Shown in pieces: positions 21,711 through 63,664 of a stretch of 64,000 bases of DNA. Origin of the DNA: Octopus vulgaris. Its lineage: Eukaryota. The stretch covers positions 39,742,001-39,806,000 of the forward strand of contig OX597827.1 in the NCBI GenBank assembly GCA_951406725.2, in the 5' to 3' direction. Positions within the stretch are counted from its first letter, which is position 1; every line of letters starts with the position of its first letter. Position numbers and translations under genes: made by a program. The notes beneath the pieces are model-generated. The model was not told the DNA's origin, made no database searches, and saw only the letters and a list, made by a program, of their open reading frames with translations.

Positions 21711-22005
21711 TTCAATAAAATACCAGTAAAGTACTGGATGTGATTGATGTAATTGGTTTACGCCTTTCTTTCAAAATTTCTAGCCTTTTGCCTAAATTAG
21801 AAATTATTATTATTACTATTAAAATCTTTAGCTTGGAGTTCAAATTCTTCAAGAGTTGGATTTTCTTATCATTCTGCATCTAACCCGAGATCATTAAAGT
21901 AAATACTGGTTATCTATTGAGAAAGAATTTTGTATGAAAAGGATATATTTGGTTGAATTGATTATATAATTTTTATACAAAATTCAGGCCTCAAACCAAA
22001 GTTGT

Positions 22006-22564
<559 letters not shown>

Positions 22565-23060
22565 TATTATTATTATTATTATTAGGCTGGTTAACAGATG
22601 GTATAACTGGTTGAACACTGGTCTAGTGGTATTTAATTACATCCCATTAGGCTCTGAGTTCAAAGCCTATTCACATCGACTTTTTCCTTTGTTGCTATGG
22701 AGTAAATATAATAAAATATCATCAGAATATAGTAGGAACTAAGTTTTTTCTCTTTTTTTAATCATATTTTGGTACACAGCACACTGGGCCATCCAGGGAC
22801 AGTTTCAGTAGTAAATTTTTCTATGAGAAACAGTTACTAGCTCCTTGCTCAACCTTTCTTGCAGAAAGGGATCCTATAAGTGGTCTTACTTTTATCTTTC
22901 ACACTGTCAAATGCAGCCAATTGAAAGAGAGAGAGAGAGAGAGAGAGAACTCAGAAATGAGGGAGCCAAAAGATGTACCAATAGACATTCTGTCTGATAC
23001 AAATGACTCAGCCAAATTGATTGACCATAACCTTCTTCCCTAAACCAATGGTAAAAAGGG

Positions 23061-29183: not shown

Positions 29184-29226
29184 CTGTGTATCATGATTTC
29201 TGGGTTATTTCCCTTCATCAGCACAG
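29184..29226 (-). ncRNA. Minimal type I hammerhead ribozyme motif
   Basis: CTGTG-CTGATGA-AGGGAAATAACCCA-GAA-ATCATGAT-A-CACAG. Stem I is 5 bp, the core is intact, stem II is GGG/CCC, stem III is palindromic and the cleavage triplet is AUA. Confidence 0.7.
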
Positions 29227-29423
29227 AATAATTGTTCAGCTAGAGGAATAATTGTTCCCACTCGAAATATATAGTTTTCAAAGTGACAACTAGACATTAA
29301 TTTATAAATCAGTGACTTTAAAAATAGTAATTTTCTGATTTATAAATCAGTGACTAGTTGTCACTTTGAAAACTATATATTTCGAGCAGGAATTTGGCAG
29401 CGCCACCTCTAGCCGAATGATTC

Positions 29424-58272: not shown

Positions 58273-58864
58273 CTGAGAGAGGGGAATACATATACACATG
58301 TATTCAAAACAGATTTATACACACAAGTATAAATACGTAAATATATACCCATACCTCTGATGCACACACACATACATACTTGTATACATTTATTCTTCAT
58401 ACATACAAAAAACATACACACAAAAAAAGTTCACCTTTTATGCCTCCTCTTCGTTCTCAATTATATAAGTACACATATTTACTTTTAAATTACATATATA
58501 TTTTTTTTATGGATATCACATCTTAACACTGTAATAGCTTTGACAATTAAAATATATTCTGCATACATTTACAGACAATATGTGCGATGCATTTCAACAA
58601 GACATATTCCAATGTATGCGAGTGCTTCTGCAGATTTGTGGGGTTTATATTTTTGCTAAACCTACGTATAGTTACCCATAAATTAGACAATTTGTATAGA
58701 TCTAACGACATGAAATCAAGTGTGTGTGGGTGTGTGTGTACGCGCGTATGTATGTATGTATGTATGTATGTATGTATGTATGTATGTATGTATGTGTGTG
58801 TGTGTGTGTGCGATCGTGAGTATGTTTGTCTTAAAATTTTTAATTAACCACACAAGGTAGTAAT

Positions 58865-59420
58865 GAAATAGGGGGACAGTTTACAGAACATTGGCAACGA
58901 TAAATTAATCCCCCACTTACCGACCATAGCAGCAGAAGCAGACTACTTGTGACCACGAAATAAGGGAACAGTTCACAAGTGGTTGACAACGTAAAATTGA
59001 TCCCCCATTTATCGTCAATAGCAGAAGACTGTAGTTACTTTCTCTTTCTAACAGCATTTTATTTTACTTATTTTTAGGCATTTCCAAAAATAATGAAATG
59101 TGAATTTTAAAAAACCAACGACTACCTTGATTGACTTTTTAAAAGGTGAAACTCTCATAACACTTGGTTGATTAATTTTTTGTTTCTATCGTTTTCTTTC
59201 TGTTTCGCTTATTTTTAACATACGAAGTGGCCATAAAGTCAAGGAACATTTTACGTAAAATCAACAACCTGAAATTAGTCCCCCACTTATGAACTATAGC
59301 AGAAGACTTCTTGCTGGTCATGAAATAGGGGATCAGCTTATAATGAGATTACAACTGAAAATCAGTCCCCCATTAACCGACCTCAGCAACAGACCGCGCA
59401 GTGCTACTTTCTCTTTCTCG
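58865..59420. repeat. Local repeat, four diverged units of about 90 bp arranged as two pairs
   Basis: An AAATTRRTCCCCCAYTTA..TAGCAG motif occurs near 58902, 58995, 59272 and 59359. Each pair ends in TACTTTCTCTTTCT. Confidence 0.75.
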
Positions 59421-60350: not shown

Positions 60351-60795
60351 CAAAACAGGAAATTCGAAAAATTTTTGGTATTATCTATTCATCATTACAC
60401 ATGTTTCATTTGTTAATAGGAGTTACAAGTTGTGTGTGTGTGTGTAGATGTGTATGTGTTGTGTGTGCGAATGCGTGTGTGTGTATGTGTGTGTGTGTGC
60501 ATATATGTATATATTCTCCCTGCAACTATCCATATTGAGACACTTTATCCACATGTAAATTTCGTTTTATTTGATTTTCTGTTTACTCTTTTACTCTTTC
60601 AGTCATTTGACTGTGGCCATGCTGGAGCACCACCTTTAATCGAGCTCATCGACCCCAGGACTTATTCTTTGTAAGCCTAGTACTTATTCTATCGGTCTCT
60701 TTTGCTGAACAGTTACGGGGACGTAAACACACCAGCATCGGTTGTCAAGTGATGTTGGGGAGGACAAACACAGACACACAAACATATACACACAC

Positions 60796-60847
<52 letters not shown>

Positions 60848-61102
60848 TATATACCACAAGCTTCTTTCAGTTTCTGTCTACCAAATCCACTCATAAGGCT
60901 TTGGTCGGCCCGAGGCTATAGTAGAAGACACTTGCCCGAGGTGCCACATAGTGGGACTGAACCCAGAACCATGTGGTTCATAAGCAAGCTACTTACCACA
61001 CAGCCACTTATTTCTCCTACATTTGTAATTCCTGTTTGTAAATGAAACATGTGTAATGATGAATAAATCATACCCAGAAATTTTCTAATCTCGTTTTGAT
61101 AC
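60347..61102. repeat. Diverged inverted repeat pair of about 85 bp (60347-60430 and 61019-61102)
   Basis: GTATCAAAAC..TATTCATCATTACACATGTTTCATTT..TTACAA and its reverse complement. Confidence 0.8.
60583..61008 (-). mobile_element. Young family B SINE
   Basis: Nearly complete head, internal (TA)n and tail, with many CpGs retained. Confidence 0.9.
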
Positions 61103-61448
61103 ATAATTATTCTCTTACTCTGCAAAAAATATTTCCCAGAATTTTCAACTCTTATGCATACCTCACACAAAGATAACATCTACACATACAGATTTGGAAT
61201 ACTAGAATAAGAAGATGTAATTATTGAGGACACAGGTTGGATATAAACCCTATCTACATAATATATATATGCATGTATGTGTGTATATATACACTGCATG
61301 TGTGTATATACACATATATATATGTATATAATTTATATTAGATAGATGATAAATGTATAGATATATATATGTGCATAAACATACATTTATCATATAAACA
61401 TGATAATGATGATATATATATATATATATATATTTATTATATAGAAGG

Positions 61449-61499
61449 AGCTTCTACAGGACTAGTACTGTTTCATTCAAGAGAAATCTTCAGGAAGCT
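61449..61499 (-). ncRNA. Type I hammerhead ribozyme motif
   Basis: Exact reverse complement of 63488-63538. Confidence 0.75.
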
Positions 61500-63074
61500 A
61501 TTTAACAAGAATTGTATTAGCATTTATACATTTAGGCAGGTTTAAAGGAGTGGTGGTGGGGGACTTTTTGGGGGTAGGCATAGCGCAAAATGTCATACTT
61601 GGGGAGTGGTCAAGGAGTCAGTGGTAAGTTAGATGAAAGAATAGATAAATAAAAAAATAAAAAAATAAAAAATAAAAAAATAAAATAAAAAATAAAAAAT
61701 ATAAAAAATATATATAAAAATATATATATAAAATATATATATAAAAAAATATATATATAAAAAAAAGGGGGATAGAGTTATAGGTAAATAAGGAGATTCT
61801 CACTTATACCTATACACACATGTATACGTATCTACACACACATACATACATACACATATATACACACACACACACATACACACACACACACATATATATA
61901 TACACACACATATGTACACACATACATACATACATACACACATACATACATACACACACGCACTCATATACAAATTTATACACATGCACATGCCTATACC
62001 TGTCTACACATACACACACGTATATATGCATACACTCACTCCCATGCATGCACGCATACACACATGTATATATATATATATATATACCCACGACCACACA
62101 TACATATATACACATAAAAATATATATTCATACGCACATACACTCATGCACACACAACACACCTAGTTCCCTATATACACATATTTACACCTATATATAC
62201 ATACACCCACATACACCTATGTACACATATATATATATAAACATATACACGCATACACACATATACATGTGTGCACATACATACATACACACATATATAC
62301 ATACACATACACATACACATGTGTACCTATACATACCTACACATACACACATACATACATACAAATATACATATACATATATATATATACAATCCAATAC
62401 AGGCCCATTCCCTAATTTTAATTTTATTATCTTCATTTATTACTTTTGTTATCTTTGATCGCTAGGGCTAAGAATCCTGGCAATGGCTGCATGTCCATTG
62501 CCAGGATTCTTAGCCCTAGCGATCAAAGATAACAAAAGTAATAAATGAAGATAATAAAATTAAAATTAGGGAATGGGCCTGTATTGGATTGTATATATAT
62601 ATATGTATATGTATATTTGTATGTATGTATGTGTGTATGTGTAGGTATGTATAGGTACACATGTGTATGTGTATGTGTATGTATATATGTGTGTATGTAT
62701 GTATGTGCACACATGTATATGTGTGTATGCGTGTATATGTTTATATATATATATGTGTACATAGGTGTATGTGGGTGTATGTATATATAGGTGTAAATAT
62801 GTGTATATAGGGAACTAGGTGTGTTGTGTGTGCATGAGTGTATGTGCGTATGAATATATATTTTTATGTGTATATATGTATGTGTGGTCGTGGGTATATA
62901 TATATATATATATATATACATGTGTGTATGCGTGCATGCATGGGAGTGAGTGTATGCATATATACGTGTGTGTATGTGTAGACAGGTATAGGCATGTGCA
63001 TGTGTATAAATTTGTATATGTGGGCGGGTGTATGTATGTGTGTATGTAGATATGTATGTATGTGTGTACATATG

Positions 63075-63119
<45 letters not shown>

Positions 63120-63487
63120 ATATATATATGTGTATGTATGTATGTGTGTGTAGATACGTATACATGTGTGTATAGGTATAAGTGAGAATCTCCTTATTTA
63201 CCTATAACTCTATCCCCCTTTTTTATATATATATTTTTTTATATATATATTTTATATATATATTTTTTTATATATATTTTTTATATTTTTTTATTTTTTA
63301 TTTTATTTTTTTATTTTTTATTTTTTTATTTTTTTATTTATCTATTCTTTCATCTAACTTACCACTGACTCCTTGACCACTCCCCCAAGTATGACATTTT
63401 GCGCTATGCCTACCCCCAAAAAGTCCCCCACCACCACTCCTTTAAACCTGCCTAAATGTATAAATGCTAATACAATTCTTGTTAAAT

Positions 63488-63538
63488 AGCTTCCTGAAGA
63501 TTTCTCTTGAATGAAACAGTACTAGTCCTGTAGAAGCT
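63488..63538 (+). ncRNA. Type I hammerhead ribozyme motif
   Basis: AGCTTC-CTGAAGA-T-TTC-TCTT-GAA-T-GAA-ACAG-TACTAGTC-CTGT-A-GAAGCT. Stem I is 6 bp, stem II is 3 bp over a U.U pair, and stem III is 4 bp with palindromic ACTAGT in the loop. The triplet is GUA, with predicted cleavage after 63532. Confidence 0.75.
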
Positions 63539-63621
63539 CCTTCTATATAATAAATTAATTTTACTCTGCTATGTATTGAGTACCTTACTTACTGTGGTTA
63601 ACCCCGAATCAACCCGGGACC

Positions 63622-63664
<43 letters not shown>

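Follow-up and report, generated by a model that had tools for sequence, protein, structure and literature searches.

The locus lies in a window of 64,000 nucleotides (the whole stretch of DNA that was analysed), on contig C14 of the 2.8-Gb genome, and corresponds to a 2.2-kb palindrome set between two (TA)n target flanks that can be seen in the sequence, one on the left (61412–61431) and one on the right (63625–63662). In the family described below, (TA)n follows both types of element end; a target-site duplication is unreadable within it. The two arms, at 61432–62486 (1055 nt) and 62495–63555 (1061 nt), are separated by an 8-nt loop, and align at 1033 matching positions, with 18 mismatches, 14 gap columns and homopolymer noise between them. 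These data agree with an earlier note on this DNA, which had described a palindrome of two arms of about 1.06 kb around an 8-nt loop, with (TA)n on both sides, no real ORF, and arms that differ in microsatellites and a few bases. The difference cited there falls within a patch of about 110 nt private to the left arm (61855–61965, minus strand); its variant was found in one of 82 typed copies, and it may be a later change, a template slip or assembly noise. The long frames within the unit are microsatellite translations only.

In family terms, position +1 is the first base of stem I of the hammerhead (63488). The following parts can be differentiated: (i) an inverted, 5'-truncated copy of the 3' end of the element (61432–62499, minus strand), with its short end (+68) at 61432; (ii) a sense, 5'-truncated copy of the 3' UTR and pLTR, of the long-UTR subtype (62495–63555, plus strand); and (iii) a tail (+69 to +141) at 63556–63628 (plus strand), with which the right arm ends at +141. 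The tail is formed by 69 unpaired nucleotides (63556–63624), a length that replaces the approximately 67 nt given when this extension was originally noticed, plus an ATAT that it has in common with the target flank. The centre (62482–62499) is a natural 5-bp inverted repeat with an 8-nt loop, both from the 3' UTR of the element, and constitutes a 5-nt microhomology join; the element's own sequence across this point is present in another copy (L032). The left arm takes in the loop and reaches 13 nt deeper into the element than the right arm. Tandem units, a criterion for non-LTR retrozymes, are absent from the palindrome, which is made of two inverted copies.

Other repeats were observed in the window: a sequence at 60580–61010, 420 nt to the left of the palindrome, which we take to be SINE-like; four degenerate direct repeats of about 45 nt and three of about 24 nt at 58860–59395; and some 600 nt of nearly pure (CAT)n at about 22000–22590.

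Hammerheads and putative promoters

Each arm carries a type I hammerhead fold, as had been claimed. The motif scan places one in the right arm (63488–63538, plus strand), with a predicted cut after 63532 (+45), and its mirror in the left arm (61449–61499, minus strand). The fold is formed by a 6-bp stem I, a CUGAAGA core, a 3-bp stem II closed by GAAA, a 4-bp stem III with a palindromic loop, and a GUA site; the core boxes, three stems and NUH site that define the type were all recovered by motif scan and folding. The covariance search recommended in the earlier note came back empty, as Rfam yielded no hammerhead, either over 8 kb (E<=1) or over 286 nt (E<=10), and returned microRNA-like noise only. 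For this reason, the fold call rests on the motif scan, the pattern of variants among copies and the likeness to the published table of Hydra hammerheads. In the isolated 51-mer, the predicted probability of the exact fold is 0.024. Over the whole window, the scan found both arms and one weaker candidate at 29221 (about 29185–29227, minus strand), with a 6-bp stem I and a short stem III.

Among 54 copies, changes are distributed unevenly along the hammerhead: stem II has 1/253 and stem III 1/361, N7 has 15/41, loop II 23/167 and loop III 35/358, and the core has 13/374, partly at junction edges. Changes common to at least three of the 54 copies occur at N7, in loop II, in loop III and at one junction-edge core position. 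The near-invariance of stems II and III would fit selection on the hammerhead fold.

A TATA-like box (63459–63465, plus strand) starts at −29, and its mirror lies 29 nt upstream of the left hammerhead (61522–61528, minus strand). The 29-nt spacing between TATA and +1 is kept in diverged subfamilies, even where the spacer sequence itself has diverged. Two loci (L172 and L161) represent a diverged sister subfamily, with about 80% identity upstream of +1, about 94% downstream and this same spacing. We are inclined to regard +1 as the RNA's 5' end, set by the TATA box at −29; a strong pause at +1 is the alternative. From its orientation, the left box would fire outward, to lower coordinates.

The earlier note had also proposed that self-cleavage and duplex formation compete in the RNA of this locus. 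In the predicted read-through transcript, all 51 bases of the hammerhead are paired and buried in the duplex (−92.9 versus −7.3 kcal/mol for the hammerhead). Transcripts fired outward from the TATA boxes would be free of the antisense arm and, hence, the competition would hold for read-through RNA alone. The copy in the window is non-coding and could, at most, supply two outward-facing promoters and hammerhead RNAs.

The parent family and its protein

The 286-nt right end of the palindrome has 917 candidate matches genome-wide, and the 40 that were scored are all 100% identical after rounding; the exact 51-nt hammerhead has 1402 matches in the genome. Among 39 flanking loci, taken as 10-kb stretches, 32 have an inverted hammerhead upstream within 9.5 kb. 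In the upstream direction, the arms are continued by a UTR of approximately 3 kb, rich in microsatellites, and then by an ORF. Full-length units measure 5.1–5.7 kb and have the order hammerhead, tail, ORF, UTR and hammerhead; from this order it follows that the tail is the leader between hammerhead and ORF, whose ATG lies about 183 nt downstream of +1.

One copy (L088) has an uninterrupted frame of 718 codons with a telomerase-like RT and a GIY-YIG-type domain. Thus, the survey of copy number and ORF linkage that had been advised for the unique parts of the palindrome gave a positive answer on both counts, and the proposed origin from a young Penelope-like element (PLE) was confirmed, the arms being the 3' end of a young ORF-bearing PLE family. 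At E<=1e-20, 1085 of 8000 scored entries are relatives of the 718-codon protein, and YRDDG is invariant across the alignment with homologs; the structural model of the protein reaches a pLDDT of 93, and the top five Foldseek matches are telomerase RTs (TERTs), with E about 1e-8. Neither Pfam (RT included), searched with the protein and its fragments, nor the PDB, searched by sequence profile, gave a match at cut-off; the Pfam RT matches in the flanks belong to other ORFs. The GIY-YIG reading, made by sequence in place of a profile match, relies on LVY...YIG followed downstream by R, H, E and N. PF01541, which we take to be the GIY-YIG entry, was found in 2 of the 120 listed homologs. A dimer prediction for residues 6–480, run on the sequence itself rather than on an alignment, gave no answer (score 0.00).

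The features of EN+ PLEs are present: (i) a telomerase-like RT in a single ORF; (ii) a C-terminal GIY-YIG endonuclease, as judged by sequence motifs; and (iii) pLTR, partial tandems, an inverted truncated copy and a tail at one end. The protein also contains the motifs of the Hydra clade, that is to say, DKT, a CxCx5C linker, and CxxC and CxH around E and N, and CCHH is absent between GIY and YIG, as in that clade. Insertion into (TA)n and a canonical hammerhead format complete the likeness. RWR replaces the RWK of the clade and can be read as a conservative variant of that motif; 20 of 24 aligned homologs have RWK and 4 have RWR. An initial assignment to the Neptune clade was dropped on the Hydra motifs.

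The 2.2-kb unit is almost certainly a truncated inverted insertion of a Hydra-clade PLE, and the family is a new one within this known clade. The joined centre of the window occurs once in the 2.8-Gb genome, so that many copies of the same structure, as expected of a non-autonomous family, were not found in the genome-wide search; given this unique centre and arms that equal the 3' end of the family, the unit is a truncation product of it. On its own, the locus is an ordinary dead PLE fragment, and it is the family that carries the value.

Two further observations concern the copies. The same one-base homopolymer frameshift is present in 25 of 28 assembled ORF copies (for instance, in L032 near 5515); two contigs cross it gap-free, with only 23 nt on one side, and it could be either an assembly error or real. 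At L157-L158 (C1:68.81-68.83 Mb), a three-unit tandem has a mini-palindrome nested in one of its units.

Pairing of ends and arrest of arms

Copies of the family end at about +68 (short ends) or +141 (long ends), followed by (TA)n. Exact patterns of unequal length, whose counts are not a true ratio, found 4227 long and 1355 short ends adjoining (TA)n. Both ends, joined to (TA)n, are also found in short-read contigs of four studies (long in three runs, short in two). Most insertions are palindromes of about 200 bp that end at +1, 29 nt below the TATA box: mini-palindromes of about 215 bp with two back-to-back hammerheads and a tail gave 642 strand matches (e.g., L108:1485-1690), from which we estimate some 420 loci. 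The first 54 long ends on contig C1 comprise 36 short two-armed insertions, 7 short one-armed insertions and 11 long ones.

The two ends of an insertion are, as a rule, one long and one short. Of the 34 loci that the mini-palindrome centre identifies on C1, all of them typed, 32 pair a long with a short end, one is long/long (L153) and one is broken (L133), the last two standing against a two-primed origin; that is, the rule holds in 32 of 33 scorable minis ascertained by their centre (p=8e-9 versus 50:50). The first 30 hammerhead matches on C1 yielded 11 pairs, all long and short, two of them in common with the mini set. Divergent long/long or short/short pairs were not found among the first 100 entries of each end list, where a long partner lies within 12 kb of 23 of the 33 short ends.

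Regarding the template, the arms of one insertion share their variants. At six polymorphic sites in 41 two-armed insertions, four of them within 25 nt of each other and hence not independent, 104 comparisons between arms agree and one differs, against an expected figure of 30.8 on the discordant scale (L033, L081 and L090 were left out, and one segment was empty). The loop-III marker agrees between arms in 32 of 33 minis, and the UTR subtype agrees wherever both arms could be typed. Later gene conversion or assembly polishing could contribute to such concordance or account for it. The six combinations of junction form, tail side and subfamily marker are all represented at the mini centre, suggesting that it arose de novo on repeated occasions, and the longer two-armed insertions that were typed have each their own centre.

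Many arms stop at +1. The stop is exactly at +1 in 14 of 43 tailed arms (13 when L161, of the sister subfamily, is subtracted) and in 8 of 36 inverted arms; it lies within −5 to +13 in 26/43 and 27/36, respectively. Stops near the hammerhead cut site amount to 0/43 and 1/36. Since arms stop at +1 and hardly ever at the cut site, the template was uncut and mostly started at +1. L154 (C2:62.93 Mb, minus strand) shows inverted +68 to +2, then about +3 to +923, two extra bases, and +2 to +141; it records a jump that leaves the 5' (+1) end and lands at a broken 3' end in the ORF, and neither pass contains sequence upstream of +1. In L185 (C1:16.31 Mb), both arms stop near +1 and enclose about 165 nt captured from an unrelated repeat.

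Junction typing excluded L031, whose sense arm runs into a tandem unit, and seven loci lacking an inverted arm; some calls lie in microsatellite and are uncertain (L045 and L069). The junctions carry short microhomologies and templated inserts, of the kind that end-joining repair would produce. Across 32 insertions, the tailed arm is more than 60 nt longer in 16, the short-ended arm is more than 60 nt longer in 9, and the arms are near-equal in 7, a class for which 10,000 shuffles gave a mean of 1.0 and a maximum of 6. Two independent truncations would, in consequence, not produce near-equal arms this often, and snap-back or coupled stopping is needed to explain them. In L054 and L082, a short piece of the host flank is duplicated in inverted orientation beyond the (TA)n on both sides; in L054 it measures about 27 nt.

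Longer products go beyond +1. Outside arrays, 14 of 15 tail-to-ORF junctions continue upstream of +1, and in six full-length copies the 3' end is of the short type and is not followed by a tail. Two loci, L122 (C2:64.628-64.632 Mb) and L123 (C5:37.481-37.489 Mb), are tandem arrays of 277-nt (−37 to +239) and 333-nt (−87 to +246) units, respectively. Each is two-armed, its ends being one long and one short, with a locus-specific junction common to both arms, and each occurs once among exact matches. These retrozyme-like arrays may have formed in one event, and they are explained most simply by rolling over a circular template or by repeated end-to-end jumps.

Formation of the palindromes and known systems

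We consider it likely that the palindrome, as one head-to-head and 5'-truncated insertion of a young PLE of the Hydra clade in (TA)n, was made of two cDNAs from one RNA. The protein of the element would cut both target strands within the (TA)n tract, and two cDNAs would be primed off the same RNA, with starts at +68 and +141; they would then be joined some 1 kb upstream at the 5-nt microhomology, by host microhomology repair or snap-back. Priming from two ends, as a separate matter, seems probable to us. In the case of arms that run past +1, such as those of the window, the explanation would be one of three: a transcript carrying the tail behind its 3' pLTR, a circle cut by the hammerhead and ligated, or a jump, guided by homology, that left +1 for the 3' hammerhead. 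A circular template is plausible for the long copies, and hammerhead cutting plus ligation into a unit-length circle fits both run-on copies and arrays, while arms such as those of the window can also be accounted for by long-ended donors primed at their 3' pLTR. A full cycle can be put forward only tentatively: RNA synthesis would begin with the first hammerhead base; within the 5' leader of a single RNA, both target strands would be primed by one complex, at +68 and +141; run-off at +1 of linear mRNA would fuse palindromes of about 200 bp; and hammerhead-cut, ligated circles would roll on to give long copies, pLTRs and, in one event, the small-circle retrozyme arrays.

Three other accounts conflict with the family data. 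The earlier note saw in the palindrome a non-autonomous PLE/retrozyme-like unit of its own, spreading as a whole; the unit indeed has no ORF, and the sharing of one centre by some 420 mini-palindromes suggests that some were perhaps recopied whole. We had to abandon this view as very improbable: the centre of the window is unique in 2.8 Gb, the longer insertions have each their own, the mini centre occurs in all six combinations, tandem units are absent from the palindrome, and the arms correspond to the 3' UTR end of a family that carries an ORF. That the palindrome is a fold-back or assembly artefact of long reads is hardly credible, in spite of homopolymer noise in the arms and of the fact that, among the runs listed, none contained all nine sampled words of the centre stretch (20 contained six of the nine). 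The ends are fixed and unequal, the outward flanks are unrelated, the same design recurs at dozens of loci with differing centres, and both ends are present in independent short-read contigs; besides, a fold-back would mirror the flank and add no tail. A head-to-head meeting of two independent insertions, or of RNAs from different donors, has a very small chance of being correct. Nesting into (TA)n flanks does occur (L059, L157) and the tandem L033 mixes UTR subtypes, but subtype and variants match between the arms much more often than chance would allow, and the centre has no (TA)n.

Snap-back of a single cDNA deserves more weight, although we judge it unlikely. A cDNA primed at +141 would fold at an inverted repeat, the endonuclease would trim the second strand at +68, and later deletions would produce the asymmetry. 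Shared variants and the end rule are directly accounted for in this manner, 7 of 32 centres are near-symmetric (several of them at natural mini-palindromes), and both self-priming (PMC3846280) and EN-mediated resolution of the tail (PMC8557442) are proposed in published work. Nevertheless, the model predicts a tailed arm at least as long as the short arm, and the reverse is observed in 9 of 32 insertions and, by 13 nt, in the window. The loop of the window belongs to the short-ended arm, so that fold-back from the tailed end needs a later deletion; fold-back from the short end is ruled against, as the short-ended arm cannot supply the tail. Moreover, the short-ended arm of L123 has about 19 array units versus about 4, the commonest mini centre has no fold loop, and L185 has unrelated sequence between its two arms. 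On the other hand, later central deletions could shorten the tailed arm and mimic priming from two ends.

The origin of the inverted repeats and tails of PLEs, as well as the role of their hammerheads, is described as unsettled in published papers (PMC8557442; PMC7761336). The thousands of young ends of this family provide rules that can be counted: long ends are paired with short ones, the arms share a template, arms stop at +1, and stops at the cut site are almost absent. With these rules, the circle model, tentatively proposed in 2014 on the basis of hammerhead cutting and ligation (PMC4209133), and the finding of two start sites, published in 2024, become directly testable. In the literature consulted, which included few subscription papers and makes this a weak negative, per-insertion end pairing, arm concordance and the +1 stop were not found; the available passages of an octopus repeat paper mention Penelope-like families, and do not mention Hydra, hammerheads or palindromes (PMC13282606).

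The closest known relatives, described in PMC8557442, are the Hydra-clade PLEs (e.g., Hydra-1_Obim and Penelope-13_HM), which resemble the family in C-terminal EN, DKT, CxCx5C, absence of CCHH, CxxC/CxH, the ctgaagat/tgaa hammerhead format and (TA)n targets. Inverted truncated copies, tails that are often confined to one end and insertion into (TA)n are given there as PLE traits, and Penelope-13_HM has an entry with a 5'-truncated copy in inverted orientation. Differences exist as well: the family has RWR for RWK, an 8-nt loop III versus 1–3 nt in the Hydra table, and 5.1–5.7 kb units with a microsatellite 3' UTR of about 3 kb versus "generally <3 kb", which in that source is a tendency and not a definition. 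We treat the family as separate from Hydra-1_Obim because, by eye and against the supplement text, the hammerhead and the N-terminus differ. Also by eye, the tail (63556–63624) and the 3' end of Hydra-2_Amil share a short motif; in Hydra-2_Amil, a TATA-like run precedes the hammerhead by about 30 nt.

Poseidon-Ac of Anolis is similar in its two internal start sites bounding the tail, its AT-rich targets, its uncut RNA template and the extension of both strands (PMC11167929). According to that paper, the Poseidon PLE cleaves and extends both strands in vitro from two adjacent internal sites, a precedent for the priming proposed here; on the other hand, the start site is the same for both strands and hammerhead activity is dispensable in vitro, two points against it. 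Per-insertion pairing of the two ends is not reported in the parts consulted. It belongs to another clade, and its hammerhead overlaps the start of the ORF, whereas the ATG of the family lies well after +1. The Penelope of Adineta vaga shares with the family an inverted pLTR with a palindromic junction, a one-pLTR tail, a pLTR TATA and sequence capture; it has few copies, and its junctions are read as self-priming on an antisense template (PMC3846280). By contrast, the thousands of ends in the present family allow counts, and these favour two primed ends over self-priming of the Adineta type. In LINE-1 twin priming, both target strands prime on one RNA and an inversion results, with arms that cover different parts of the RNA; the arms of the family cover the same part, from two fixed starts.

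Finally, animal non-LTR retrozymes have type I hammerheads, are non-coding, and are linked to PLE pLTRs, from which they are considered to derive (PMC7761336; bioRxiv 10.64898/2026.07.22.740005). L122 and L123 fit this description, with the difference that they are two-armed, and may show retrozymes arising from a PLE, whereas the unit in the window is neither tandem nor amplified.
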